64,000 nt of DNA. Source: an uncultured Actinomycetota bacterium. Lineage in GTDB: Bacteria > Actinomycetota > Actinomycetes > Mycobacteriales > Micromonosporaceae. Below the pieces are notes generated by a model that saw only the letters and a list, made by a program, of their open reading frames with translations, did no database searches and was not told the DNA's origin. Of the stretch, positions 2,422 to 62,861 are shown one piece after another (within the stretch, counting starts at the first letter, position 1; each line of letters begins with the position of its first letter). The DNA lies in NCBI GenBank assembly GCA_963809545.1, contig CAWEKD010000004.1:120971-184970 (forward strand), written 5' to 3'. The position numbers were made by a program, and so were the translations under genes.

Positions 2422-4026
2422 CTACGGCATCCGGTCCGCCGCTGCCCGCGCCAGCCGGCGCGCCCGGGGACGGCGACCGGCCCGGGGCCGAGGCGCGCCC
2501 GCCGCGGTATCCGGCCGCCCCGGCAGCCACCGGAGCACGACCAGCACCGACACCACCGCCACCACCGTGGAGGCGGCCGCGGCCAGATGCATCGCGGTCA
2601 CGAACGCGTGGTCGGCCAATCCCGGCAAGTCCGGTAACTCGAGCCGGGTCGCCACCGCGTACGCCGCGGCGATGGACTCGGCCGCCTCTGACCGGACCGG
2701 ATCGGGCAAGCCCGACAGGGCCGGGGTGATCTCCGCCCGGTACACCGCCATGATCAATGAGCCGAGCACCGCGATCCCGAGCGCACCGCCGACCTGCCGC
2801 GCGGTGTTGGCTACCGCCGAGCCCACGCCCGCCCGCTCCCGCGGCATGCACGCCAGGATCGCCTCCATCGCCGGGGGCATCACGTGCGCCATCCCCGCCC
2901 CCTGGACGAAGAACGACGCCGCCACCACCCAGATTGGGGTGTGCTCGTCGAACACGGTCCACACCAGGAGGGACACCGTGGTCAGGGACAGCCCGATCGC
3001 ACAGATCCGTTTCGCGCCGTACCGCTGGACCAACAGCACACTCCGCGGGGCGAACACGATCTGCGCCAACGCGAACGGCAACAGCAGCAGGCCGGTGGCC
3101 AGCGGCGAATAGCCGCGTACCAGTTGCAGGTAGAAGGCGACGAAGAAGAACACCCCGAGCGCGGCGAAGAAGATCAGCGCGGTCACTCCGACCGCGGTGG
3201 CGAATCGGGGATCCCGGAACAGCCGGACGTCCAGGGACGGATGCCGGGCTCGCCGCTCCCACCACACGAACACCGCCAGCCCGAGCAGCCCGCCCCCGAC
3301 CCACAGCCACGGCTCCGGTCGGTCGAACCCGTGCTCGCCGCCGTTGACGATCCCGTACACCAGCGCCCCGAGGGCCACCACCGACAACAGGACCCCGGGC
3401 AGGTCCAGGCCGCTGGGGGTGGGGTCTCGGGACTCCGGTACCAGCAGCGCGGTCAACCCCATGGACAGGAGCACGACCGGCACGTTGATCAGGAAGATCG
3501 AACCCCACCAGAAGTACTCCAGCAGGACCCCGCCGGTCACCGGTCCGATCGCGACCGCGATCCCGACCGCGCCGGACCAGATCCCGATCGCCCGTCCCCG
3601 CTCCGCGGGATGGAATACGTGCGAGATGATCGAGAGCGTGGCCGGCATGATGGCGGCCGCGCCCAGCCCTTTAGCGGCGCGGGCCAGGATCAGTTGGAGC
3701 GGATCCTGGGCGTAGGCGGAGGCGACCGACGCCACCAGGAACACCAGCAGTCCGAACTGCAGCATCCGGCGACGACCGAACCGGTCGCCGAGCACCCCAA
3801 ACATGAACAGGAACCCGGCGAACGCCAGGGTGTAGGAGTTGACCGCCCACTCCAGCTCCGCCTGGCTGGCCGCCAACCCCTGCTCCGGGTCGGCGAGCAC
3901 CTTCAGGGCCACGTTGAGGATGGTGTTCTCCAGCACCACTACCAGCAGGCAGAGCACCATCACGCTGAGCACCCACCACCGGCGCGGATGGCCGGTGGGC
4001 GTAGCGATAGCGGTGGCCGAGCTCAC
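2422..4026 (-). CDS. MFS transporter, DHA2 (EmrB/QacA-like, 14-TMS type)
   Basis: 534 aa, many hydrophobic segments, motif GDRFGRRRMLQFGL, GTG start. Confidence 0.85.
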   Translation of the reverse strand: MSSATAIATPTGHPRRWWVLSVMVLCLLVVVLENTILNVALKVLADPEQGLAASQAELEWAVNSYTLAFAGFLFMFGVLGDRFGRRRMLQFGLLVFLVASVASAYAQDPLQLILARAAKGLGAAAIMPATLSIISHVFHPAERGRAIGIWSGAVGIAVAIGPVTGGVLLEYFWWGSIFLINVPVVLLSMGLTALLVPESRDPTPSGLDLPGVLLSVVALGALVYGIVNGGEHGFDRPEPWLWVGGGLLGLAVFVWWERRARHPSLDVRLFRDPRFATAVGVTALIFFAALGVFFFVAFYLQLVRGYSPLATGLLLLPFALAQIVFAPRSVLLVQRYGAKRICAIGLSLTTVSLLVWTVFDEHTPIWVVAASFFVQGAGMAHVMPPAMEAILACMPRERAGVGSAVANTARQVGGALGIAVLGSLIMAVYRAEITPALSGLPDPVRSEAAESIAAAYAVATRLELPDLPGLADHAFVTAMHLAAAASTVVAVVSVLVVLRWLPGRPDTAAGAPRPRAGRRPRARRLARAAADRMP

Positions 4027-4087
4027 CGCGTCAGGCTAGCCCTCCCAGTTCCGAAACGGAACGGTTCCGTTTCACAAGTGGTCCGAC

Positions 4088-4456
4088 TCACCGATCCCCG
4101 CGCTGCCGCCCCAACTTCTCCGCGACCGGTGCGAGGTCGTCGGTGACCAGCAGGTCCGCCCGGACCTGCTGGTCACGGTAACCAGCCCGACACACCATGT
4201 GCGCGGCCACGGGCGCGGTGGCGAGCTGGAATACCGCCACCAGCACCAGGGTGGTGATGTCCACTCCGGTACGCAGCCGCAGCCCGCATCCGGTCAGCGC
4301 CAACAGCAGCCCCAGCGACTGCGGCTTGGTAGCGGCGTGCAGCCGCGACATCAAGTCCGGAAACCGCAGCAACGCGACTCCGGCGGCCAAGCTGAGCAGC
4401 GCCCCGGCGATGAGGCAGACCGCGGAGATCACGTTCAGGATCGCGTCGAGGTTCAT
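4088..4456 (-). CDS. mrpG: Na+/H+ (monovalent cation/H+) antiporter subunit G
   Basis: 122 aa, MNLDAILNVISAVCLIAGALLSLAAGVALLRFPDLMSRLHAATK is the MnhG/MrpG signature. Last gene of a 4-nt-overlapping operon. Confidence 0.85.
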   Translation of the reverse strand: MNLDAILNVISAVCLIAGALLSLAAGVALLRFPDLMSRLHAATKPQSLGLLLALTGCGLRLRTGVDITTLVLVAVFQLATAPVAAHMVCRAGYRDQQVRADLLVTDDLAPVAEKLGRQRGDR

Positions 4457-4713
4457 CGGCGCTCCCGCATCGCGAACCGCCCCACCGCCACCGAGCCGGT
4501 GAAGCCCAGCAACGACAACACCACCAGCACCGGCAGCGCGGTGCCGTCCTGGTAGTAGGCCGCGCCCGCGGCGATCGCGATCACCGTAATGGCCAACAGG
4601 ACGTCGGTGGCGACGATTCTATCCAGAGTAGACGGACCACGGACGATCCGAATCAAGGTCAGCCCGCCCGCCACCGCCAACAGCAGCGCTACCGCACCAA
4701 CGACAACGGTCAT
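4453..4713 (-). CDS. mrpF: Monovalent cation/H+ antiporter subunit F
   Basis: 86 aa, 3 hydrophobic segments, LIRIVRGPSTLDRIVATD motif; position between mrpE and mrpG. Confidence 0.8.
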   Translation of the reverse strand: MTVVVGAVALLLAVAGGLTLIRIVRGPSTLDRIVATDVLLAITVIAIAAGAAYYQDGTALPVLVVLSLLGFTGSVAVGRFAMRERR

Positions 4714-5330
4714 GACAGGGTGCTCTCCTTCTCCGACGAGGGGGATGGAACGGGCGGAGCCGGGGTGGAGGGAGGTGTGGCCGAGGCCGCGGCCAATTGA
4801 CGCAGCTCCGCCGGGGAGCCGATCGCCCGGACGATCCGGGCCTCCACTCCCCAGGTGCTCTCGCGGAACCGCTGCACCTCTTCCTGGTTCTCCACCCCCA
4901 GCACATGGACGTACAGGGTGCCGGTGTTCCGGTCCGCCTCCACGATCAGACTGCCCGGCACCAGGGACACCGCCTCACCGACCAGCGTGAGGTTGAGGTC
5001 CGAATTGACCCGCAACGGCACCGCCACCACCGCGGTCCGTGGCGGTGGCCCCGGCCGCAGCGCCAACCAGGCCACCTGCACACTGGCCACCACCAGGTCG
5101 GCCAGGAACCGCACCACCAGCCAGATGAACCACACTGGCCGCACCCGGCCGGCGAAGGTGACCGGGGGCAGCGGGAAGAACCACAGCACCAGCGCGGCCA
5201 CCACCAGCCCGCCGATCAGGTTGCCCCACGAGAAGGTGCCCCACAGCAGAATCCAGATCAGTACCAGCACCGCCAAAGCGATGAACTGATTGCGCCACCG
5301 CTGGCGCCGGGACAGGGTCTGGTCGGTCAC
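4710..5330 (-). CDS. mrpE: Monovalent cation/H+ antiporter subunit E
   Basis: 206 aa. Operon position, membrane N-terminus, GSLIVEADRNTGTLYVHVL motif typical of MnhE. Confidence 0.72.
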   Translation of the reverse strand: MTDQTLSRRQRWRNQFIALAVLVLIWILLWGTFSWGNLIGGLVVAALVLWFFPLPPVTFAGRVRPVWFIWLVVRFLADLVVASVQVAWLALRPGPPPRTAVVAVPLRVNSDLNLTLVGEAVSLVPGSLIVEADRNTGTLYVHVLGVENQEEVQRFRESTWGVEARIVRAIGSPAELRQLAAASATPPSTPAPPVPSPSSEKESTLS

Positions 5331-6895
5331 GGCGCCTCCCTCGGGAATACCGCCTCCAGATACGGGGTGCGTTGCAGCAGATCCCGGGCGGCCTGGTCAC
5401 TGACGTCAAACAGTGGGCCAGCCACCAGGGTCAGGCCCGCCCCCAGCGCCACCAACACCAAGGTCGGGACGATCATCAACCGGGGCAGCATCGCCCCGGA
5501 CGGGCTCGGGTCGGACAGCCCCAGCAAGCGGGCGCGCTCCGCCGCGGGGGAGACGTCCGGCACCGACGGCATCTCCGGGTGCGGCATCCGCCAGAATGCC
5601 AGGTTCCACACCCGCGCAATGGCGTACAGGGTGAGCAGGCTGGTCACGACCCCACCGGCGACCAGGGTCCAGGCCATCGGGCTACCCACCTCCACCCCGG
5701 CCTGCAACAACCCGAGCTTGCCCAGGAATCCGGAGAACGGCGGGATCCCGGCCAGGTTCAGCGCGGGTACGAAGAACAGCACCGCCAACAACGGCGACAC
5801 CCGAGACAGCCCGCCCAGCCGGTCCAGGGAGGTGGTGCCGCCTCGGCGTTCGATCAACCCCGCCACCAGGAACAGCGTGGTCTGGATGACGATGTGGTGG
5901 ACCACGTAGAAGATCGCGCCGGTCAGCCCCGCGACGCTGGCCAACCCCACCCCGAACAGCATGTACCCGATGTGGCTGATCAAGGTGAAGGAGAGCAGCC
6001 GCTTGATGTCCGACTGGGCGACCGCGCCCAGGATCCCCACCACCATGGTCAGCAGCGCCAGGAACATCAACATGTCCCCGACCGGGCTGTCCGGGAACAG
6101 CAGCGTTTTGGTCCGAATGATGGCGTACACCCCGACCTTGGTCAGCAACCCGGCGAACACCGCGGTGACCGGGGCGGGGGCGGTCGGGTAGCTGTCCGGC
6201 AGCCAGGCCGACAACGGGAACACCGCCGCCTTGATACCGAACGCCAGCAGCAGCATCCCCTCCAGCGCGAGACTGAGCCCCGGCGGCAGGTCCTGGACCC
6301 GCTCGGCCAGGTGCGCCAGGTTCAAGGTCCCGGTGGCGCCGTACACCAACCCGATCGCCGACAGGAAGATCACCGAGGAGAGCAGGCTGACCACCACGTA
6401 CGTGGTGCCGGCGCGCACCCGGGTGCCGGTGCTGCCCAGCGTCAGCAGCACGTAGCTGGCCACCAGCAGAATCTCAAACCCGACATACAGATTGAACAGA
6501 TCGCCGGACAGGAACGCGTTGGTGACCCCCGCGGCCAGCACCAGATAGGTGGGGTGGTAGACGGTCAGCGGGGTCTCCTCGTTGCCGTCGGCCATACCCT
6601 GGCCGATCGAGTAGATCAGCACGCACAGCGTGACCGCGGCGGACACCACGAGCATCAACGCGGCCAGCTTGTCGGCGACCAGCACGATGCCCACCGGCGC
6701 GGTCCAGGCACCCACCTCCATCACTAGCGGTCCATGTTGAACCGTGAGTGCCAGCAGCGCCACCGCCACCGCCAGGGCGGCGGAGAGTACGGTCAGGGTG
6801 ACCGCTCGCTGCGCCCGCGGGCGCCGGGGCATCATCAACGTCAACGCCGCTCCCAACAGCGGCATCACCACCGGCAGCGGTACCAGCCAGGTCAC
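5327..6895 (-). CDS. mrpD: Monovalent cation/H+ antiporter subunit D (NuoN/NuoM-like)
   Basis: 522 aa polytopic protein with NADH-quinone oxidoreductase chain-like repeats; operon position. Confidence 0.88.
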   Translation of the reverse strand: MTWLVPLPVVMPLLGAALTLMMPRRPRAQRAVTLTVLSAALAVAVALLALTVQHGPLVMEVGAWTAPVGIVLVADKLAALMLVVSAAVTLCVLIYSIGQGMADGNEETPLTVYHPTYLVLAAGVTNAFLSGDLFNLYVGFEILLVASYVLLTLGSTGTRVRAGTTYVVVSLLSSVIFLSAIGLVYGATGTLNLAHLAERVQDLPPGLSLALEGMLLLAFGIKAAVFPLSAWLPDSYPTAPAPVTAVFAGLLTKVGVYAIIRTKTLLFPDSPVGDMLMFLALLTMVVGILGAVAQSDIKRLLSFTLISHIGYMLFGVGLASVAGLTGAIFYVVHHIVIQTTLFLVAGLIERRGGTTSLDRLGGLSRVSPLLAVLFFVPALNLAGIPPFSGFLGKLGLLQAGVEVGSPMAWTLVAGGVVTSLLTLYAIARVWNLAFWRMPHPEMPSVPDVSPAAERARLLGLSDPSPSGAMLPRLMIVPTLVLVALGAGLTLVAGPLFDVSDQAARDLLQRTPYLEAVFPREAP

Positions 6896-7359
6896 GAGTG
6901 CTCCCGTGGGTCACGCGGGGTCGGAATCACGGCGGCCGCCCCGGCCGCGGCGACCTCGCTGTCCGGGGTGTCGTCCTCCCCCACCTCAGACCGGTCCCGA
7001 TCTTGCTCCGCCTGGCGCATGATCCGCCGGTCCTCGACGTCGTCCTGCACCTCGTCGTGCCCGGTCAGGTACCAGCTGCGGTACGCCATCGCCAACAGGA
7101 ACGCGGTCATCCCGAACGTGATCACGATGGCGGTGAGGATCATGGCGTGCGGGAGCGGATCGCTCATCTGGTCCTGCGGAGTGGTGCCGACGATCGGCGC
7201 CCCGCCGGCGCGGCCGGTGGTCAGAATCAGCAGGTTGGCGCCGTTGCCCAGCAGGACCACCCCCATCACCACCCGGGTGAGGCTGCGCTCCAGCAGTAAC
7301 GCCACGCCCGCGGCGAACAGCACCCCGATCAGCAGCACGTACCAGAGGTTGGGACTCAC
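6892..7359 (-). CDS. mrpC: Monovalent cation/H+ antiporter subunit C (NuoK-like)
   Basis: 155 aa. N-terminal NuoK-like membrane part (LLERSLTRVVMGVVLLGNGANLLIL) plus an acidic tail. Confidence 0.82.
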   Translation of the reverse strand: MSPNLWYVLLIGVLFAAGVALLLERSLTRVVMGVVLLGNGANLLILTTGRAGGAPIVGTTPQDQMSDPLPHAMILTAIVITFGMTAFLLAMAYRSWYLTGHDEVQDDVEDRRIMRQAEQDRDRSEVGEDDTPDSEVAAAGAAAVIPTPRDPREHS

Positions 7360-10199
7360 ACCGGCTCCTTCACCCGCATCCGAGCCCGGCTCGGCAGCCC
7401 CGCCTCCTGCTGGCGGTCCACCTCCGCGCCGAGACTACGCAGGATGTCCAGGACCAGACCGATCACGATCAGGTACACCCCGATGTCAAAGAACACCGAG
7501 GTGACCAGGTGCACCTCACCGAACGCCGGCAGCTGCAGGTCGAGCAGCGCGCTCTGTAGCACCTGCCCACCCAGCACCATGGCGGCCACCCCGGTGCCGG
7601 CGGCGAACAACAGCCCGGTGCCCAACACCACGCCCGCATCGGCGGGCGCGGCCGCGTTCAGTTCCTGCCGACCACCGGCCAGATAGCGCAGGGTCAGGGC
7701 GAGCCCCGCCACCAGCCCTCCGGTGAAGCCACCGCCGGGTGCGTTGTGGCCGGAGAACAGCAGGTACAGCGAGAACAGCACGATCGGGTGGAACACGAGC
7801 CGGGCCACCACCTGCAGCATGATCGACTGCCGCCGGGCCTCCGGGCTGTCCCCCGCCATCAGCCACGGCCATCCCCGGTCCCGCTGCCCCCGCACCGGTC
7901 GGCTCCCCCGCCGCCGGGTGAACGCCTGGCTACGGCGGAAGATCAGGCTGGCCACCCCGGTCCCCGCCACCACCAGCACGGAGATCTCCCCCAGGGTGTC
8001 CCAGGCCCGCATGTCGACCAGGGTCACGTTCACCACGTTGCGGCCACCGCCGTCGGCGAAGGCCAGCTCCGGAAAGTCCACAGAGATCGGTATCGCCGCC
8101 CGGCCGGCCACCGCCGCGTACGCCAGTCCGGACATCACCAATCCGACCGCGACCCCGACCGCTATCCGCCACCGCCGGGTACGACGGGCGGGGCGCTCGG
8201 AGAACCGCGCCGGCAACCGGCGTAGCACCAACACGAACAGCACGATCGAGACGGTCTCGACCAGGAACTGGGTCAGCGCCAGGTCCGGCGCACCGTGCAG
8301 GATGAACAACGCCGCGATGGCGTAGCCGCAGACCCCGACCAGGATCGCCGCGGTCATCCGCCGCTGGACCCGGGCGGCGAACACCGCCGCCCCGCCCGCG
8401 ACCGCCCCCACGATCAGCTGGGGCACGGTCATCGCCAGCGACTGCGGCCCCGTCGTGGGGAACAGCCGTCCCCACAGCAGCACTCCCCCGCCGAACACCA
8501 CCAGCACCAGCAAGGTCGTGCCGAGGTAGAACGGCAACGATCCCCGCTGGGTCGCCGCGGTCAACACCACCGCCAGCCGGTCCAACCACCGCCGGCACCA
8601 CTGGTAGACGTCCTCACCGGTAACCGGCAGCCCGCCCCGGGTGAGGCTCGGGCGGCGGCTGATGACCCAGGCCAGGCCGAGCCCCGCGACCAGCGCCAGC
8701 CCGGACAGGGCCAGCGCCACTGTGGGCCCGTGCCACAGCGCCAGGTGCTGGTCGGCCCCCGTCTCCGGAAACGCCGACACGTAGCCGGACAGCAGCCGGT
8801 CCACCACCGGCGCGCCCGCGCCGGCGATCAGGCCGACCGCGGCCAGCACCAGCGCCGGGGCCACCAGCAGCGGGCCTGGCCGCTCCCCGGCGGTGGCGGG
8901 GTGGCCGGCCCGGGTGCCGAACGCCCCCCACAGGAAGCGCAGCGTGTAGGCCACGGTCAGCACCGACCCGGTCACCAGACCGGCCAGCACCAACCGGTCG
9001 ACCGTGCCGCCGGCGGCGAAGGCCGCGAACACCCCCTCCTTGGCCACGAACCCGAGCGTGGGGGGCAGGCCCGCCATGGAGGCGGCCGCCAGGACCGCTA
9101 ATCCGCACACCACCGGCATCCGCCGGCCCAGCCCGGACAGCTCCCGCACATCCCGGGTACCGGTGGCCCGGTCGATGATCCCGACCACCAGGAACAGCGC
9201 GGCCTTGAACAACGCGTGGGCCAGCAGCATGGCCGCACCGGCCAGCGCCGCCGCCCGGGTGCCCGCCCCCAGCGCCACCGTCAACAGCCCCAACTGGCTC
9301 ACCGTGCCGTAGGCCAGCAACAGCTTGAGGTCGTGCTGCCGCAACGCCGCTGCCCCACCCAGCAGCATGGTCACCACCCCGGTGGTGAGCACCACCGCGC
9401 GCCAGGGAGAGTCGGCGGCGAAGGCGGGGGACAGCATCGCCATCAGGAACACCCCCGCCTTGACCATGGCGGCGGCGTGCAGGTAGGCGCTGACCGGGGT
9501 GGGGGCGGCCATGGCCGCCGGCAACCAGAAGCTGAACGGGAAAATCGCCGACTTGGACAGCGCCCCGATCAAGACCAGCACCAACGCCACCGTCAGGTAG
9601 GGCGCCGCCGGCGGGGCGGCGGCCAGCACCTCCGACAGCCGGTACGAGCCGGCGTGCTGCCCCAGCATGATCAGCCCCACCAGCATCGCCAACCCGCCCA
9701 GGGTGGTCACCAGCAGGGCTTGTAGCGCCGCCCGGCGGCTGGTCTGCCGGGCAGGATCATGCCCGATCAGCAGGTAGGAGAAGACGGTGGTCAACTCCCA
9801 GAACACGTACAGCAAGAGCAGATCGTCGCTGACCACCAGGCCGAGCATGGCGCCGGCGAAGGCCAGGAAGGTCGCCGCGAACCGGCCCAGCCCCGCCTCC
9901 TCGGCGTGGAAGTACCGAGCACTGTAGATCAGCACCAGGGTCCCGACCCCGCTGACCAACAGCACCATCAACCACGGCAGGGTGGTCAGCCGGAAGCTGA
10001 GTCCTAACCCGAGTTCCGGTACCCAGGGGTGGCTCTCCACCACCGCACCGGTGCGGATCTGGTCGAACTGGGTCAGTGCCCATCCGAGGGTGCCGGCCGG
10101 CACCACCGCCAGTCCGTACAGAGCAGAGCGGCCCCATTGCCGCACCGCCCAAGGTGCGAATAGGGCCGCCAGCGCGTGAGCAGCCAGCAGTACGAGCAC
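7356..10199 (-). CDS. mrpA: Monovalent cation/H+ antiporter subunit A fused to subunit B (group-2 Mrp MrpA/B)
   Basis: 947 aa. NuoL-like N-terminal region plus a C-terminal MnhB-like region (DTLGEISVLVVAGTGV, LFSGHNAPGGGFTGGLV). Confidence 0.9.
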   Translation of the reverse strand: MLVLLAAHALAALFAPWAVRQWGRSALYGLAVVPAGTLGWALTQFDQIRTGAVVESHPWVPELGLGLSFRLTTLPWLMVLLVSGVGTLVLIYSARYFHAEEAGLGRFAATFLAFAGAMLGLVVSDDLLLLYVFWELTTVFSYLLIGHDPARQTSRRAALQALLVTTLGGLAMLVGLIMLGQHAGSYRLSEVLAAAPPAAPYLTVALVLVLIGALSKSAIFPFSFWLPAAMAAPTPVSAYLHAAAMVKAGVFLMAMLSPAFAADSPWRAVVLTTGVVTMLLGGAAALRQHDLKLLLAYGTVSQLGLLTVALGAGTRAAALAGAAMLLAHALFKAALFLVVGIIDRATGTRDVRELSGLGRRMPVVCGLAVLAAASMAGLPPTLGFVAKEGVFAAFAAGGTVDRLVLAGLVTGSVLTVAYTLRFLWGAFGTRAGHPATAGERPGPLLVAPALVLAAVGLIAGAGAPVVDRLLSGYVSAFPETGADQHLALWHGPTVALALSGLALVAGLGLAWVISRRPSLTRGGLPVTGEDVYQWCRRWLDRLAVVLTAATQRGSLPFYLGTTLLVLVVFGGGVLLWGRLFPTTGPQSLAMTVPQLIVGAVAGGAAVFAARVQRRMTAAILVGVCGYAIAALFILHGAPDLALTQFLVETVSIVLFVLVLRRLPARFSERPARRTRRWRIAVGVAVGLVMSGLAYAAVAGRAAIPISVDFPELAFADGGGRNVVNVTLVDMRAWDTLGEISVLVVAGTGVASLIFRRSQAFTRRRGSRPVRGQRDRGWPWLMAGDSPEARRQSIMLQVVARLVFHPIVLFSLYLLFSGHNAPGGGFTGGLVAGLALTLRYLAGGRQELNAAAPADAGVVLGTGLLFAAGTGVAAMVLGGQVLQSALLDLQLPAFGEVHLVTSVFFDIGVYLIVIGLVLDILRSLGAEVDRQQEAGLPSRARMRVKEPV

Positions 10200-10276
10200 G
10201 CGCCTCCTCGCTGATCAAATTATGGACGGGGCTTCCAGGGTAACGGGCCACACATGATCCGCAGCGGACTGTGAGA

Positions 10277-11152
10277 TCAGTCACTAGAGGCCAGTAGCGT
10301 CTGCAGCTCGGCCGCATTGCGTTGGGCATAGTCGCGGTAGCAGTTGTTCAGTAATGCGTGGGTCTGCTCCGCCTCCCCCGCCAGCCGTCGGATCCGAGAG
10401 GCCCAGTCCGCCAGCTCCTGTTGTGAGTAGCGGTATCCGAATTTTTCATAGATATCCCGGCTGGTCCACTTGCTACTGTGCCCGTGGAGCCGGACCATCG
10501 CTAGCTCACCGGTTACCTCCAACACCGGCGGCACCGATGAGCGGTGCCCCTGCGGCATGTCCACACATACATACGGCAATTGGTGGGCCCGCAGGAACTC
10601 CAGCGTTTCTCGCTGGTTATCCCCAGCGAACCAAGAGGAGTGCCGCAGCTCCACCGCTACCGGGAGTGGCCGGCAGCGGGCGGCCACCTCCAACAAGTAC
10701 TGCTTGTTGTCTTTCCGGATGGTAAACCAGGGCGGGAACTGAAACAGAATCGCCCCCAGCTTGCCGGCCTCGGCCAGTGGCTCCAGTGCAGACAGAAATC
10801 GAGACCACACCTCCTCATACGCCTGCGCGGGTAGATCCTTGGGGTACAGATGCCGTTTGTCAGTGTCCGGGCGCAGATCGGCGTAAAGCGCCTCCGGCCG
10901 GGTCGGGTGCCCCGTCAGCAGGCTGAACGCCTTGACGTTGAAAGTGAACTCGTCTGGAGTGCGATCTGTCCACAGTGCCACTGTCCGTTCGGCTGGAGGG
11001 GCATAGTATGTGGAATCCACCTCGACCAATGGAAATTGGCTGGCGTAATACGCCAACCGACGCGCCGGATTGTCCGCGCTCGGGGGGTACCATCCGGATG
11101 CCAGTAGCGTCCGGTCGGTCCAGGATGCGGTGCCGACCTTGATCTCTCCCAT
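10277..11152 (-). CDS. DUF72 (YecE-like) family protein
   Basis: ORF 10277..11428 trimmed to ATG at 11152 (MGEIKVGTASWTD...YYA...LFQFPPWF), classic DUF72 motifs. Confidence 0.8.
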   Translation of the reverse strand: MGEIKVGTASWTDRTLLASGWYPPSADNPARRLAYYASQFPLVEVDSTYYAPPAERTVALWTDRTPDEFTFNVKAFSLLTGHPTRPEALYADLRPDTDKRHLYPKDLPAQAYEEVWSRFLSALEPLAEAGKLGAILFQFPPWFTIRKDNKQYLLEVAARCRPLPVAVELRHSSWFAGDNQRETLEFLRAHQLPYVCVDMPQGHRSSVPPVLEVTGELAMVRLHGHSSKWTSRDIYEKFGYRYSQQELADWASRIRRLAGEAEQTHALLNNCYRDYAQRNAAELQTLLASSD

Positions 11153-40385: not shown

Positions 40386-40488
40386 TCAACGCCGCCGTGG
40401 GCCGGGCCGGTCCCATAGCCCTGAAGTGGGATGGCCGAGGTCGGCTGGGTTGTGCCGAGCAACGCGAAGGAGCGACAGGTGCTGGACT

Positions 40489-41127
40489 GGCTGAACTCCA
40501 CGGCGGTCACCGCCTTCGGGGTGCCGACGTCCTGGGCGGAGCTGCTGGGTTTCGGCACCGGCGCCCTCTGTGTGCTGCTGGTGGTGCGCCAGCACATCGC
40601 GAACTGGCCGATCGGCATCCTCAACGTCCTGCTGCTGATGGTGGTGTTCTGGACCGCCGGGCTGTACGCCGATGCGGGCCCTGCAGATCGTCTACGTGCT
40701 CCTCGGCGCGTACGGCTGGTGGCACTGGGCCCGTGGCGGAGCTGACCGCGGCACCCTGCCGGTGCGGCGCACCACCGGCACCGAGTGGCTGGCTTTAGCG
40801 GCGGCCGGCGCCGCGGGCACCGGCGCGCTGTGGTTCTTCCTGGCGCACTACACCGACTCCACGGTGCCGCTGCCGGACGCGCTCACCACCGCGTTGTCGC
40901 TGCTGGCCACGTACGGGCAGGCCCGCAAACTGGTGGAGAGCTGGTGGCTGTGGATCACCGCCGACCTGATCTACATCCCGCTGTACGGCTACAAGGGGCT
41001 CTGGTTGACCGCGCTGCTCTACGTCGGGTTCCTGTGTCTGTGTGTGCTCGGGCTGCGGGCCTGGCGCGCCGATCTACGCCGCCGCACCGGCGCCGGTGAC
41101 CCGGCCGTGACGGGGGTGGCCGGATGA
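40489..41127 (+). pseudogene. pnuC: Nicotinamide riboside transporter PnuC, apparent 1-nt frameshift
   Basis: GTG at 40489 with GAAGGAG SD: VLDWLNSTAVTAFGVPTSWAELLGFGTGALCVLLVVRQHIANWPIGILNV...LYADA. It continues in the frame of ORF 40672..41127 (QIVYVLLGAYGWWHW...). Junction gcgggccctgcag at about 40672..40684. Confidence 0.8.
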
Positions 41128-58365: not shown

Positions 58366-58959
58366 CTAACCAGCGGAGGCGGAACCGCCGTCTACCAAGA
58401 AGTGTCCGAGAGGCGACTGTGGAGTGTCACGGTGCCAACCGAGGGCTTCAAACAGCGCACCGGCGGTGACGAGATCCACCGCCCCATTGGCGGTGATCAG
58501 CTGCTGCAGGTCCCGCCGGACCGTCCGGACGCTCACCCCCAGCTCCTCGGCGAGCTGCGCGTACGACCGACCGCCGCTCATCCGGATGATGATCACATGT
58601 TGGCGGCGGGTGGGTGGCTGCCAGTTACGGATTCCGGCGCGTTCCCGTACCAGCTCACGAATCGCGGCCGCGGCGACGTACCCCCACCGCACGCTGGCCG
58701 CGCCCAGGGTGTACCGGGTGCGCGCGGACAGCTTCCGCCGCAGTTCCGCCACGTCGTTTTCGATGGTCCGGAGTGAGAGCTTCAGCTCCCGGGCAATGGT
58801 GTCCTGGGTGGCTCCCGTCAGCAAGCGCCATAGTATCGCCACTTGTCGGGTTGACACTGGACGAGTGTCCGATAAACTCGGCCGGATCTTCTTAGACATT
58901 CGACGTGATGTCAGGTTGTCTGAACCCCCTGACAAGGGTTCTAAAACCTTGGCGCGCAC
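58366..58959 (-). CDS. Transcriptional regulator made of two tandem LuxR/GerE-type HTH domains
   Basis: STRQVAILWRLLTGATQDTIARELKLSLRTIENDVAELRRKL and RRQHVIIIRMSGGRSYAQLAEELGVSVRTVRRDLQQL. Start uncertain (GTG 58959 or ATG 58899). Divergent from the sdpC-like gene. Confidence 0.68.
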   Translation of the reverse strand: MRAKVLEPLSGGSDNLTSRRMSKKIRPSLSDTRPVSTRQVAILWRLLTGATQDTIARELKLSLRTIENDVAELRRKLSARTRYTLGAASVRWGYVAAAAIRELVRERAGIRNWQPPTRRQHVIIIRMSGGRSYAQLAEELGVSVRTVRRDLQQLITANGAVDLVTAGALFEALGWHRDTPQSPLGHFLVDGGSASAG

Positions 58960-59382
58960 CTCAGGAAGTGGATCACCCCCACCGCCATAAAGGCGCTGGA
59001 ATATAGATGCACTTCGCGACCGGGACAGCGCTCATAGACCCCCCTTGGGATCAATCCCCGCGCAACACTCCGCTGTGCGCAGCATACCCGCTGTCGAAGC
59101 CGACGATAAGTCCGGCGACTTATAGAAGTTAACCACTTAAATGATGTGGCCAAATTAGACATAACACTACATCACGCCCATAGGTGGATGAGGTAAGCAA
59201 TCTCCAAAGATCCACCATTGTCCGAATGGCAAGCTCCATGCGGAATTGACTGTCCACTTTCCGTAAATATCAATTGTTCAGCTTGCCATCGGGCAATTAC
59301 GCATTACCATCCGGACACGGTGCCCCAGCCCCATCTGACTGGGACACCTACTTCCCCCAGTGATCCACATAGGAGGGACACC

Positions 59383-60069
59383 ATGCGGAGGAAACTCCTA
59401 CTGGTGGCGACGATCTGCGCCCTGACCGTCGGGGTCACGTCTCCGCCAGCCGGCGCCTACCAGTCGCTCGGCGCCACCGACACCCCGGCGGCCGAGACGG
59501 TGCACACCGACTCGCTCGCCCCCGCTGGCAGCATCGACGCCACCGAGCGGGACATCCTGGCCGGCCTGCTCTTCGGCATCGGCGACTTCGCTGCGGAGAT
59601 CGGCAATGAGGTCCCGGCGATCGCCGGGCTCTCGAAGGCGGAATACCAGGCTCAGGCTGAGGAGATGCTGGACGGCTTCATCTCCGCCCACAGTGTGGAG
59701 CTGAAGCCGGTACTGGCAGACATTCGCAGCGGTGACATCAACCGGGTCGAGGTCGGCCTGGATGGCCTGGCCCGGCTCTACCTCGGCTACGTGGAGAGTC
59801 GGGTCAGCGCGGAGGAGTACGCCCTGCTGCAGCAGGGGCAGGAGTACCTCCCCGCCTGCGGTCTGGCGTGGGCCTGCGTCGTTACCGTAGTCATTCACAA
59901 CACCGTCGCGATCACCTCGGCGGCTGCCGTCGCTATATCCGCGGCTCTTGCCCTCGCCATCACGGTGTGGTGCGGGGTCACGGCCGAGGATTGCCAGATC
60001 GAGCGCGCTCCCTCTCGTGCGGAGGCGGAATACTTCCGCGCAGAAATCGCCCGCGCCGCACGGGCGTAA
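59383..60069 (+). CDS. SdpC-family antimicrobial peptide precursor-like secreted protein
   Basis: ATG 59383 with AGGAGGG SD. Signal peptide MRRKLLLVATICALTVGVTSPPAGA-YQ. GLLFGIGDF and PACGLAWACVVTVVIHNTVAITSAAAVAISAALALAITVW parallel B. subtilis SdpC GLLFGQGEV and PSCGLYAVCVAAGYLYVVGVNAVALQTAAAVTTAVW (recalled from memory). Confidence 0.72.
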   Translation: MRRKLLLVATICALTVGVTSPPAGAYQSLGATDTPAAETVHTDSLAPAGSIDATERDILAGLLFGIGDFAAEIGNEVPAIAGLSKAEYQAQAEEMLDGFISAHSVELKPVLADIRSGDINRVEVGLDGLARLYLGYVESRVSAEEYALLQQGQEYLPACGLAWACVVTVVIHNTVAITSAAAVAISAALALAITVWCGVTAEDCQIERAPSRAEAEYFRAEIARAARA

Positions 60070-60076
60070 CGTACAC

Positions 60077-60111
60077 CCTGGCCGGACCAGCGCGTGGCTG
60101 GTCCGGCCAGG
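60077..60111 (+). promoter_or_regulatory. Strong intra-operon stem-loop between the precursor and processing genes
   Basis: 15-bp perfect stem cctggccggaccagc / gctggtccggccagg, 5-nt loop gcgtg, 8 nt after the precursor stop. No T tract. Confidence 0.55.
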
Positions 60112-60150
60112 CCCCCCTGCACACGGTGAAATCTCCGGAGACGGACTCTG

Positions 60151-60792
60151 ATGCCCCGCACCGCTCTAGCTCCTCATCAGGAAGCACCCCGTACTGCCAG
60201 CGATCAACAGCATTCCGATCCAGCCACGCCGGATCCGGCGGTGGTACGACGCATTCGCATGGTCACCGCTGTCGTGGTCGTGCTCATCGCAGCCACAACA
60301 GCGCTTTTCTCTCTTCCCTCCCACATTCACCTGCCCCGCAGCTGGCAGACCGGCTTCTCCTCCGTGCAGTCCCTGGTACCTCAAGGGTGGGGATTCTTCA
60401 CGCGTAACCCACGGGAAGCGAGCATGATCCCGTACGTCTACGACGGTACGACGTGGGTCAACGCCAACCGCGGCCCTAATGCGCAACTGCGGTATCTCCT
60501 GGGGCTCAACCGGGAAAGCCGCCTCACCGAATTCGACATCGTCCAGCTTCTGCAGCAGTCCGCCACCGTCACGACGTGGACCCCCTGCGCCGAGCCGGAG
60601 GTCGACTCATGCGTCGCCTCCGCCACCGCCGCCGGCGTGGTCCCGGTGGTGACCTACGGCTACCAACTCCGGCTGTGCGGTGACGTGCTCATCATCCGGC
60701 AGGAGCCGATCCCGCTGGCGTACGCCGGCTTGGGTTACCGCCCACCCATGGAGGCGATCCGTTTCCATGTCACCTGCCAGGAGCCCGCATGA
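60151..60792 (+). CDS. SdpA-family antimicrobial peptide system protein-like
   Basis: 213 aa, one N-terminal TM helix (MVTAVVVVLIAATTALFSL), then LVPQGWGFFTRNPRE, which matches the PQGWxFF(T/S)xxPR motif I associate with SdpA. ATGA coupling to the next gene. Confidence 0.62.
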   Translation: MPRTALAPHQEAPRTASDQQHSDPATPDPAVVRRIRMVTAVVVVLIAATTALFSLPSHIHLPRSWQTGFSSVQSLVPQGWGFFTRNPREASMIPYVYDGTTWVNANRGPNAQLRYLLGLNRESRLTEFDIVQLLQQSATVTTWTPCAEPEVDSCVASATAAGVVPVVTYGYQLRLCGDVLIIRQEPIPLAYAGLGYRPPMEAIRFHVTCQEPA

Positions 60793-61775
60793 GCAGTACC
60801 GTCCCGACCTCCGCCCGGGAAGAGAAGACCCTGGTTCAGCGCCTCGATCAGTTCATCCTGCGCGTCTCCCCGTTCAACCAGGTGTTGGGGCTGACCCGCA
60901 CCATGCTGGCGATCGCCACCGCCCTCACCCTGGCGGCCACCCCGAACGACCAGCTGTTCTTCCGCAGCGTCAACTACCCCGAGGGAGTGGTGTGCGGGCG
61001 CGGCCTGGGCCAGTGGACGCTCTACTGTCTCACCGGCGGCAGCCGGTACTTTGACCTGGTCGTCTGGGGCTCCGTGCTGGTGCTCCTGGTGGTCGCCACC
61101 GGCTTCGCTCCGCGGTGGACCGCGATCCCCCACTGGTACATCGCGTGGAGTTTCGCCGCCAGCAGCCCGATCCCTGACGGGGGCGACCACATCACCACGA
61201 ACCTGGCCCTGCTGTTGGTGCCGCTGTGCCTGCTGGATCGGCGGCGCTGGCACTGGTCACCGGACACCACGTACCACCAGCGCAGTGTAGGGGTGAAGTT
61301 CGCCGCCTACGGAGCTATCGCACTGTGGATCCTCCAGATCTTCGTGCTCTACTTCCAGGCGGCGGTGGCGAAGTTCGGCGTCACCGAGTGGGCGGACGGC
61401 AGTGCGCTGTGGTACTGGATGCAGAACCCCACCTTCGGCCCCGCCGGATGGATGCGGGACCTGGCCCTCGGCATCCTGCAGTATCCGCTGTTCGTGCTGC
61501 TGGTCACCTACGGCACCCTGCTGTTCCAGGTGACGCTGGCGTTCTCCCCGCTGTACTCCTGGGGGTGGCGGCGCTTCTACCTGTTCGCCGCGGTGGTGTT
61601 CCACTTGGGGATCGCGGTCACGATGGGGCTGTGGTCGTTCTCCATCGCCATGATCGCCGCCGACCTGATCTTCCTCATCCGGCCCCATGAGTCGCTCCAC
61701 GTCCCATGGTTGTCCCGGCTATGGCAGGTCGGGCGAGAACGCGTACTCAGCCTCAGCGGTAGATCCCACTCCTGA
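60789..61775 (+). CDS. SdpB-family (HTTM / vitamin-K-carboxylase-like) polytopic membrane protein
   Basis: 328 aa, about 7-8 TM helices. DGGDHITTNLALLLVPLCLLDRRRWHW resembles the SdpB/HTTM DGGDQ...L motif. Size equals B. subtilis SdpB (about 320 aa). Confidence 0.72.
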   Translation: MSSTVPTSAREEKTLVQRLDQFILRVSPFNQVLGLTRTMLAIATALTLAATPNDQLFFRSVNYPEGVVCGRGLGQWTLYCLTGGSRYFDLVVWGSVLVLLVVATGFAPRWTAIPHWYIAWSFAASSPIPDGGDHITTNLALLLVPLCLLDRRRWHWSPDTTYHQRSVGVKFAAYGAIALWILQIFVLYFQAAVAKFGVTEWADGSALWYWMQNPTFGPAGWMRDLALGILQYPLFVLLVTYGTLLFQVTLAFSPLYSWGWRRFYLFAAVVFHLGIAVTMGLWSFSIAMIAADLIFLIRPHESLHVPWLSRLWQVGRERVLSLSGRSHS

Positions 61776-61792
61776 CCCCACACCGGTACGGC

Positions 61793-61828
61793 GTGGCCCC
61801 GGTCCTTGCGCACAAGGACCGGGGCCAC
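61793..61828. terminator. Bidirectional hairpin terminator between the sdpB-like and GH130 genes
   Basis: 16-bp perfect stem gtggccccggtccttg / caaggaccggggccac with 4-nt loop cgca. Confidence 0.68.
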
Positions 61829-61841
61829 CCGGTTACGCCCG

Positions 61842-62861
61842 CTAGGCGCCAGACGGTTCCGGTGCCGGACAGGTCAGCAGGAAATCCACCACTTCGGAGT
61901 AGGACGCGCTGGCGAGCCCGACGCAGGTGTCGGCGGCCCCGTAGTACAGCCGGAGCCGGTCCTGCTCCACGTCATGCACCAGGCCGGTCGGGAACACCAC
62001 GTTCGGGGCGTCGCCGGTCCGCTCGTACGGCTCGACCGGGCTGAACACCCACTCGTCGGTGCGGCGCAGCACCCGCTCCGGCCGCTCGGCGTCCAACAAC
62101 GCCAGCCCGGCCCGGTAGACCAGCCCACCCGCCACGCTCTTGATGCCGTGGTAGACCGCCAGCCACCCGTGCGTGGTCAACACCGGCGGGGGCCCCATGC
62201 CGATGCGGACGTTGTCCCACCACGGGCCCGGCCGCGCCGGCAACACCAGCGTCGGTTCGGACCAGGACCGCAGATCCGGGGAGCGGGACAGCCACACATC
62301 CGAGCGCTGCGTGTCCTGGATGGTGGGGCGATGGAACATCACGTACTGGCCATCGATCCGGTACGGCAGCAGCGAGGCGTTCTTGTCCGGCGGCGGCATC
62401 ACCACCCCCAGCAGCTCCACCTCGACGAAGTCGGTGGTGCGCGCCATCGCCACCGCCGGGCCGGCGGGGCCGTAGGCGGTGAATGTCAACACCCAGGCGG
62501 CCTGGTCCTCCAGCCAGACCACCCGTGGATCTTCCACCCCCCACCGGGACGCCTCTCCGAGGTCCCCGGCGCTGATCAGCGGAGTGGGCGAGATCTCCCA
62601 CCCGGTCGCCCCGTCCAGGCTGCGGGCGACCGTGAGGTGGGAGATCCCGCGTCGGTCCTCCACTCGACACACCAGCACCGTCTGCCCATCGACCTGGGCA
62701 GCGGCCGGGTTGAAGACGGTGTTGACCGGATAGGGCCAGTCCGCCGGGCTCAACACCGGGTTGTGCGGACTACGCCGAAACAGCCCGGCTACCTGCTGGC
62801 CGGGCCGGTGGCGCTCGGTGGCTGCGAGCTGTGATCCGGCAGCCGAGGGCTCGTCGCCCAC
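61842..62861 (-). CDS. Glycoside hydrolase family 130 (beta-mannoside phosphorylase/glycosidase-like)
   Basis: 339 aa from GTG 62861 (GGAGGTG SD). NPVLSP...VFNPAA...GVEDPRV...DKNASLLP...HGWLAVYHG...YRAGLALLD...NVVFPTG...YYGAADT. Confidence 0.85.
   Translation of the reverse strand: MGDEPSAAGSQLAATERHRPGQQVAGLFRRSPHNPVLSPADWPYPVNTVFNPAAAQVDGQTVLVCRVEDRRGISHLTVARSLDGATGWEISPTPLISAGDLGEASRWGVEDPRVVWLEDQAAWVLTFTAYGPAGPAVAMARTTDFVEVELLGVVMPPPDKNASLLPYRIDGQYVMFHRPTIQDTQRSDVWLSRSPDLRSWSEPTLVLPARPGPWWDNVRIGMGPPPVLTTHGWLAVYHGIKSVAGGLVYRAGLALLDAERPERVLRRTDEWVFSPVEPYERTGDAPNVVFPTGLVHDVEQDRLRLYYGAADTCVGLASASYSEVVDFLLTCPAPEPSGA

Follow-up and report, generated by a model that had tools for sequence, protein, structure and literature searches.

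We have analysed a 64,000-nucleotide stretch of DNA from an uncultured actinobacterium of the Micromonosporaceae (assembly GCA_963809545.1, contig CAWEKD010000004.1, forward-strand positions 120,971 to 184,970), hereafter called the window. It carries a gene for a precursor of the SdpC family, followed by homologues of sdpA and sdpB. The precursor holds an internal hydrophobic core framed by two pairs of cysteines. We regard this core as representing an undescribed four-cysteine subfamily of the SdpC-type toxins; actinobacterial SdpC homologues and variation of the core as such were already known. A first reading made from the letters alone (the sequence-only reading) had placed the core at residues 159-204, from CGLAWAC to CGVTAEDC. 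Translation of nucleotides 59857-59994 (+) gives exactly this segment of 46 residues, CGLAWACVVTVVIHNTVAITSAAAVAISAALALAITVWCGVTAEDC, with the Cx5C (C159/C165) and Cx6C (C197/C204) spacings as described and 31 hydrophobic residues between the two pairs.

The precursor and its relationship to SdpC

The toxin SDP of Bacillus subtilis comprises residues C141-S182 of SdpC (42 residues), and both SdpA and SdpB are needed for its processing (PMC6818787). SDP has a single intramolecular disulfide (PMC4887032, PMC6818787), which must be C141-C147 because only two cysteines lie within residues 141-182. The sequence-only reading had named this disulfide, within CGLYAVC, in agreement with both publications and with the SdpC sequence. 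Its proposal of kinship with SdpC also stands, and the first CGxxxxC of the precursor (C159, C165) aligns with the ring cysteines C141 and C147 of SDP. C159 and C165 are invariant or nearly so in a 35-sequence alignment of the family.

The reading frame of the precursor begins with ATG 59383 and ends with the stop codon at 60067-60069. We took this ATG as the start because a Shine-Dalgarno sequence and the homologues support it; a longer frame from TTG 59218 was disfavoured on the same grounds. The Shine-Dalgarno site, TAGGAGGGA, is also kept in a syntenic metagenome contig (L009). By inspection, the N-terminus reads as a Sec signal peptide, with MRRK, a hydrophobic stretch and AGA|YQ, and an equivalent hydrophobic segment is present in the relatives. 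A lipoprotein signal was ruled out from the sequence, since C12 lacks a lipobox and is not conserved, and so was a Tat signal, since the two arginines are not conserved. The pro-region that follows aligns with SdpC residues 21-140 by hhalign. Within the core, residues 166-196 hold the hydropathy maximum of the whole precursor (19-residue Kyte-Doolittle mean up to 2.28) together with the conserved polar positions H172, N173, T174 and T178. The C-terminal tail is mildly basic, with five arginines against four glutamates.

Several profile comparisons connect the precursor with SdpC (reference sequence SDPC_BACSU). An alignment of 14 actinobacterial sequences matched Bacillus SdpC by hhalign with a probability of 96.5% (E 8e-10, 160 aligned columns), covering the beginning of the core and the pro-domain with its GLLFGxG and SxD motifs. 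Bacillus SdpC was also retrieved with the family profile, at 7.9e-37. In precomputed annotation, PF26137 (Toxin_SdpC) is assigned to the 98%-identical protein P0001 and also to P0002-P0005. Our own Pfam scan gave no match for the precursor, nor for B. subtilis SdpC itself; unrelatedness was rejected as the cause, since the Pfam set that was scanned does not contain PF26137. A sequence search of the PDB with the precursor gave no match. A Foldseek search of the PDB with its AlphaFold model reached a best E of 1.2, and the low-ranking rows for BAX and Mcl-1 were not significant and were not used.

The same system membership is reflected in the gene order. The order sdpC-sdpA-sdpB was found in all seven genome loci fetched by sequence pattern, which came from a genome scan with a 14-sequence alignment (four Microbacterium, one Cellulomonas, one Corynebacterium metagenome-assembled genome (MAG) and one Actinomycetales MAG). 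It was also found on the contigs of P0003 and P0006, namely L009-L011, three metagenome contigs syntenic with the window, and L012. A metagenome scan yielded two loci, and a profile search of a 5.8-billion-protein set yielded nine proteins, with hydrophobic words swamping the candidate list. Judged from these sequence comparisons, both the remote homology of the precursor to SdpC and its membership of the sdp system are well supported, at a score below the cut-off of the NCBIfam model.

The actinobacterial SdpC-like precursors that were tested (P0003, P0010, P0014 and others) all scored 28-61 bits on this model, TIGR04032. NCBI names such precursors 'hypothetical protein' because they fall below its cut-off, and recognises their sdpA and sdpB neighbours. 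Most of the relatives are deposited under that name, including a Natronosporangium sp. MAG record at least 90% identical to the precursor.

The second cysteine pair across the family

An exhaustive HMMER search of 1.84 billion representative sequences returned 32 relatives. These, together with closer matches and B. subtilis SdpC, form the 35-sequence set, with representatives at no more than 50% identity; one protein of 4049 residues and one without cysteines were left out. The sequence-only reading had found no counterpart of the second pair in SdpC, and C141 and C147 are indeed the only cysteines in SdpC 141-182. It had also made its proposal depend on conservation of this pair among actinobacterial precursors. 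The alignment upholds this for one part of the family: beyond the first pair, two cysteines occur in 20 of the 35 sequences, none in the other 15, and never one or three. The pair is therefore a trait of a clade and not of the family as a whole. This both-or-none pattern goes beyond chance: Fisher's test gave p = 3e-10, a naive value uncorrected for relatedness. By parsimony on a neighbour-joining tree of the N-terminal domain only, about four changes of state are needed and each involves both cysteines; the tree is an approximate one, and the independent events are few. The second CGx(4-6)C is accordingly a clade trait whose two cysteines come and go only together.

All 20 second loops begin with CG, as the first loop does. 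Their spacings are Cx5C (CGAWAWC type), Cx6C (CGVTAEDC here, and the CGVWWVDC type) and, once, Cx7C. The distance from the second to the third cysteine is 27, 31 or 33 residues. The named four-cysteine members belong to Microbacterium, Leifsonia, Cellulomonas, an Actinomycetales MAG and Natronosporangium, and the second loop is also present in loci L002, L003, L005-L009, L012 and L013. The named two-cysteine members include Actinomyces, a Bifidobacteriaceae MAG, Actinopolyspora, Corynebacterium and Bacillus. These two-cysteine relatives hold (A/T)G-x-W-x-W-(V/A/G) at the columns of the second loop, for example LW-A-GAWRW-V-G against LW-C-GAWAW-C-G. Since they keep G-x-W-x-W, the cysteines of the second loop overlie an older interfacial motif. 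In the precursor and its nearest relatives the loop tryptophans are exchanged for polar or acidic residues (CGVTAEDC, CGVTDKDC, CGAPSSKC and CGVVNEQC).

Conservation, expressed as the mean majority fraction, is highest in the core (0.55) and lower in the N-terminal domain (0.38). Within the core, conservation is lowest in the second loop once its cysteines are set aside (0.29; hydrophobic segment, 0.58).

Proposed maturation of the core and competing explanations

The position of the core relative to mature SDP can be compared at both ends. At the C-terminal end, W196 of the precursor aligns with W174 of SdpC, and the eight residues CGVTAEDC that follow match in number KYVAKYSS, the C-terminus of mature SDP. 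At the N-terminal end, SDP is cut at TPS|CG with a conserved proline two or three residues upstream, and the precursor reads LPA|CG. Therefore, a positionally conserved maturation would yield exactly residues 159-204. The predicted peptide has a grand average of hydropathy of 1.59, an isoelectric point (pI) of about 4.4 and a computed monoisotopic mass of 4523.27 Da with two disulfides, 4525.29 Da with one and 4527.30 Da in the reduced form. We consider, with a probability of roughly 0.6, that residues 159-204 are the core of a membrane toxin of about 46 residues that is matured by SdpA and SdpB and contains two small disulfide loops. Its excision, termini, disulfides and their connectivity are proposed by analogy with SDP, and the proposal for the disulfides and the excision rests on homology and co-occurrence.

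In this case, the pre-pro-protein would be exported by the Sec pathway and would lose its signal peptide at about A25|Y26, by analogy with SDP. The hydrophobic core would be held in a soluble and inactive form by the helical domain at the N-terminus together with the C-terminal helix. SdpA/SdpB-dependent cuts before C159 and near C204 would then free the peptide of about 46 residues. The ring C159-C165 would form as it does in SDP, and a second small ring, C197-C204, may rigidify the interfacial motif of the C-terminus (G-x-W-x-W in most relatives, KYVAKYSS in SDP). Finally, the peptide would enter the membranes of competing Gram-positive cells and dissipate their proton motive force. As its role, competition between species is at least as likely as the killing of siblings to delay sporulation.

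The predicted architecture of the precursor is parallel to that of SdpC. AlphaFold2 was run on the 35-sequence alignment with both proteins as targets. In the precursor model, the helical N-terminal domain (residues 51-140) has a predicted local distance difference test score (pLDDT) of 88-97 and the C-terminal helix (212-227) one of 91-95, and the core falls below 50 over residues 155-199. In the SdpC model, a confident N-terminal domain is followed by a low-confidence insert at 131-184 (pLDDT below 50), which brackets the experimentally excised 141-182, and by a confident helix at 187-202 (pLDDT about 90) that begins just past the cleavage site S182|S183. The sequence-only reading had described polar, helix-like flanks around the core (EEYALLQQ... 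and ...SRAEAEYFRAEIARAARA) and had taken them for pro-regions. The flanks do correspond to predicted helices, H143-150 and H212-227, and the likeness to SdpC, where the flanks are removed, supports their assignment as pro-regions. The models suggest that the N-terminal domain and the C-terminal helix fold together with the core looping out between them. With the core looping out in this manner, both cysteine pairs would lie on the same extracytoplasmic side.

These models also bear on a different connectivity of the same excised toxin, in which the cysteines would cross-link a helix-turn-helix hairpin at its ends, pairing either as C159-C204 and C165-C197 or as C159-C197 and C165-C204. The ends of the core may emerge close together, as suggested by the confident domains that flank it in both models. 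The modelled core splits into H163-171 and H181-196 around a break at 172-180, which is the conserved HNTVxxT(S/G) stretch, and the CG start is common to both loops. However, the core is modelled at a confidence that gives this break little weight. In the two-cysteine relatives, including SDP, the disulfide between the first and second cysteines is the only one possible. The first pair is also unchanged in the four-cysteine members, so that the simplest addition is a second vicinal ring, and the distance from the second to the third cysteine varies among them. We regard the cross-linked hairpin as rather unlikely.

The end of the mature toxin could also lie elsewhere. If it ended at or just past W196, the second cysteine pair would belong to the discarded C-terminal pro-region and would serve the folding of the precursor or its recognition or cleavage by SdpA/SdpB. 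The low conservation of the second loop apart from its cysteines would fit this, as would its polar, acidic composition, which is unlike a membrane-active element, and the low-pLDDT segment stops at residue 199. In SDP, however, the eight residues past the equivalent tryptophan belong to the mature peptide, and the G-x-W-x-W underlying the second loop is conserved in the two-cysteine relatives too. An end at W196 therefore appears about as doubtful as the hairpin.

The possibility that nothing is excised had been named by the sequence-only reading as a plain C-terminal membrane anchor. A secreted helical domain would then be held by this anchor, and the cysteines would be incidental or structural. 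A single long hydrophobic segment close to the C-terminus, with a mildly basic tail behind it, does resemble a stop-transfer sequence. However, the homologous segment of SdpC is excised, and sdpA and sdpB are linked to the precursor gene in each of the seven genome loci. The supposed anchor is also conserved more than the domain it would hold, which disfavours this alternative, and it contains conserved polar residues and cysteines that are gained and lost together. We consider an uncleaved anchor to be improbable. Finally, a metal site (for example for Zn) or intermolecular disulfides that oligomerise the peptide would be very improbable uses of the four cysteines: two CG-x(4-5)-C pairs could in principle come together, but in SDP the first pair has been proven to form a disulfide, the peptide would reside in an oxidising, extracytoplasmic compartment, and 15 of the 35 relatives make do with two cysteines.

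For the excised toxin with two small disulfide loops, several points must be counted on the opposite side. The precursor scored only 28.5 bits (E 1.2e-6) on TIGR04032 (toxin_SdpC), below the cut-off of 99.2 bits; other actinobacterial relatives scored 42-61 bits and B. subtilis SdpC 178.9, and the model is tuned to Bacillus-like members. The actinobacterial SdpC members are known from sequence alone. The C-terminal cut near C204 is a positional guess by analogy. The second loop is here polar and acidic and lacks the tryptophans of most four-cysteine relatives, and its role may differ. Also, a hydrophobic segment working as a stop-transfer anchor would leave C197 and C204 exposed to the reducing cytoplasm. 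Neither sdpR, for an ArsR-type repressor, nor sdpI, for a multi-pass immunity and signalling protein, adjoins sdpCAB in the window, and a fourth gene that accompanies sdpB in related loci was not found anywhere in the 64 kb by tblastn or by search with a hidden Markov model. With the immunity pair and the fourth gene missing near the operon, the production of an active toxin by this strain, and the manner of it, come into question.

Most of the actinobacterial loci have the fourth gene: it stands directly 3' of sdpB in six (L003, L005-L008 and the syntenic L009 group), and a gene of the same size occupies this position in L010 and L011. Its product is 155-166 residues long, has two transmembrane segments and ends in a conserved domain, RPFEDFGGWGIKG...DGRRYLV; the protein gave no match in Pfam or NCBIfam. 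We consider it a candidate immunity or accessory protein. In the window, 66 bp (61775-61842) separate sdpB from a convergent GH130 gene. Within about 10 kb of the operon, the range covered for such genes, no small multi-pass membrane gene was found; no SdpI model was run over the remainder of the window. A weak match of the fourth-gene and immunity search at 40431-40745 was rejected as an unrelated small membrane protein. Other loci differ in this respect. Directly upstream of sdpC in M. suaedae (L001 8428-9886) lie a GntR-family regulator and a 339-residue membrane protein with a DUF1648 N-terminus (23.3 bits, under the Pfam cut-off of 28.7), and these two may be the analogue there of the immunity and signalling genes sdpR and sdpI. 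Microbacterium locus L006 has an extra CAAX-type protease. For neither the DUF1648 protein of M. suaedae nor the protease of L006 was a homologue found in the window.

A wider picture can be drawn from these observations, which we put forward as speculation with a small chance of being right. SdpC-type precursors would be 'split' pro-proteins, in which the N-terminal domain and the C-terminal helix fold as a single unit and cage the toxin core, which is extruded from it as a hairpin. In the four-cysteine clade the CG-x(4-6)-C motifs would come to lie next to each other and staple this hairpin, and the present strain would have lost the fourth gene and would resist its toxin otherwise or silence the operon. 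If true, the stapled hairpin would be a membrane toxin with two cross-links, whose fold is so far unseen among bacteriocins.

For the excised toxin with two small loops, the value of the actinobacterial clade lies in its natural variation. The members of the family studied so far are SDP of Bacillus and, genetically, the YIT paralogue. Natural variants of the actinobacterial clade either have or lack the second cysteine pair, at positions that match the C-terminus of mature SDP. In the two-cysteine relatives, alanine or valine at the positions of C197 and C204 is a natural swap with which the effect of the extra ring on stability, potency and processing can be probed. Also, the narrow NCBIfam model means that genome mining misses a class of membrane-active peptides in Micrococcales and Micromonosporales. 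The gain is modest, as a known toxin family is extended and no new mechanism is revealed.

Genomic surroundings and comparison with known systems

The features of the operon and of the fourth gene in related loci are collected in Table 1.

Table 1. Coordinates of the sdp operon features in the window and of the fourth gene in related loci (own coordinates of each locus).
Feature	Position	Strand	Remarks
Divergent regulator, 197 aa	58366-58959	-	Two helix-turn-helix (HTH) modules (GerE/LuxR-type; HTH_11/sigma-70 region 4-type); Pfam matches
Promoter-like region	59226-59310	+	Function predicted from sequence
Shine-Dalgarno AGGAGG	59371-59376	+	6 nt ahead of ATG 59383
SdpC-family precursor gene	59383-60069	+	228 aa + stop; TIGR04032, hhalign, PF26137 on 98%-identical P0001
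Predicted Sec signal peptide, residues 1-25 (MRRKLLLVATICALTVGVTSPPAGA / YQS)	59383-59457	+	Basic n-region, hydrophobic h-region, AGA before cut
N-terminal pro-region	59458-59856	+	Residues ~50-150 helical domain; conserved motifs GLLFGxG, RSGDxxxVE
Loop 1, C159-G-L-A-W-A-C165 (Cx5C)	59857-59877	+	Homologous to SDP ring C141-C147
Hydrophobic segment, 31 residues (166-196)	59878-59970	+	Hydropathy and conservation
Loop 2, C197-G-V-T-A-E-D-C204 (Cx6C)	59971-59994	+	Clade-specific second cysteine pair
C-terminal pro-region, residues 205-228	59995-60066	+	Amphipathic helix 212-227, family motif ExF(V/A)xxV/I
Perfect hairpin, 15-bp stem, 5-nt loop	60077-60111	+	8 nt past sdpC stop, 40 nt ahead of sdpA
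sdpA homologue, 213 aa	60151-60792	+	PF17418 82.7 bits; TIGR04034 71.4 bits against cut-off 53.1
sdpB homologue, 328 aa, multi-pass membrane protein	60789-61775	+	TIGR04033 235.8 bits against cut-off 178.4
Fourth gene, L009	10364-10864
Fourth gene, L003	10133-10651
Fourth gene, L005	10140-10607
Fourth gene, L006	10222-10716
Fourth gene, L007	about 10170-10652
Fourth gene, L008	10169-10651

The start of sdpB, which encodes about five hydrophobic segments, overlaps the stop of sdpA (ATGA), indicating translational coupling. The hairpin between sdpC and sdpA has no U-tract; the folding energy of its 96-nt context is -46 kcal/mol (z = -2.9). In L009, a perfect 14-bp hairpin of unrelated sequence stands at the same position (about 8668-8702). 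The hairpin of the window is probably an attenuator or a stabiliser of the mRNA that raises the ratio of precursor to enzymes. A scan for intrinsic terminators found no canonical hairpin with a U-tract.

An orthologue of the divergent double-HTH regulator, 209-280 residues long, occupies the same place by sdpC in the syntenic loci L009-L011, and the regulator was not found in the Microbacterium, Cellulomonas and Corynebacterium loci. The promoter-like stretch between regulator and precursor gene is low in GC (0.52-0.55). It contains a 10-bp inverted repeat (59226-59235/59280-59289) that overlaps a sigma-70-like TTGCCA-16-TACCAT (59283-59310), and a block TGTCCACTTTCCG(T/C)A(A/G)ATA at about 59250-59270 that is conserved with L009. 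From its sequence, this stretch may be the operator of the regulator.

The GC content of the sdp genes with the regulator (58366-61775) is 4-8 points below that of the flanks. Also, sdpC and sdpA fail a filter of at least 0.80 for GC at third codon positions (GC3) that is passed by almost every other gene in the window. In M. suaedae, transposase genes stand on both sides of the locus (L001 5838-6248 and 12676-13853). Taken together, the low GC and GC3 values and these transposases suggest that the cassette has spread horizontally. The flanking genes are of housekeeping type, namely a 5'-nucleotidase, a GH130 enzyme and a glycosyltransferase; farther upstream lie genes for Usp, a nitroreductase, a phosphoketolase, a GNAT-CoA ligase and a P-type ATPase. 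At 2422-10199 (-), seven co-directional genes encode highly hydrophobic proteins of 947, 155, 522, 206, 86, 122 and 534 residues. From its sequence this run looks like an operon for an Mrp-type multi-subunit cation/proton antiporter, unrelated to the sdp operon.

Compared with B. subtilis SdpC, the precursor shows the same plan at about 19-23% identity. Both have a Sec signal peptide (predicted in the precursor), a helical pro-domain of about 110-130 residues with GLLFGxG and an internal hydrophobic core that starts with CGxxxxC. In both, a tryptophan closes the hydrophobic segment, the tail is short and helical, and sdpA and sdpB are neighbours of the precursor gene; the predicted product is similar in length, with 46 residues against 42 in SDP. 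On the other hand, the hydrophobic segment is longer by four residues, and K175 and S182 of KYVAKYSS give way to the second cysteine pair. The core is acidic, whereas SDP is basic (pI about 8.7). The gene order is C-A-B instead of the A-B-C of B. subtilis (sdpABC-sdpRI), and a divergent double-HTH regulator stands in place of the adjacent sdpR/sdpI. SDP itself collapses the proton motive force (PMC6818787).

In Bacillus, several groups of SdpC homologues from paralogous sdpABC-like operons each have their own C-terminal hydrophobic core, and that of YitM (the YIT toxin, yitPOM) is acidic and without sequence similarity to SDP (PMC6818787). By this description the YitM core resembles the present one in its acidity, but here the first loop and the HN/VN position align with SDP. 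YitM and the other Bacillus homologue groups belong to Bacillota, whereas our precursor is actinobacterial. Among Actinobacteria, weak sdpABC homologues have been mentioned in Brevibacterium aurantiacum (PMC5719810) and in Streptomyces spp. (PMC3924187). The actinobacterial records named 'SdpC family antimicrobial peptide' (P0003 from JGI and one NCBI record, P0030) belong to the same family, fall under PF26137 and have the same linkage to sdpA and sdpB. All of these are annotations or mentions of a single line. No account of the second cysteine pair or of an actinobacterial sdp product was found in the searchable literature, which leaves most subscription journals outside. A similar addition of a second disulfide is known from the pediocin-like (class IIa) bacteriocins, which share an N-terminal disulfide and of which a subset adds a C-terminal one that stabilises the membrane-inserting half. 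These are small leader-peptide products exported by ABC transporters or the Sec pathway, with no internal excision by SdpAB. Accordingly, they offer an analogy, and no homology, for the role that the second loop may have in the predicted toxin.

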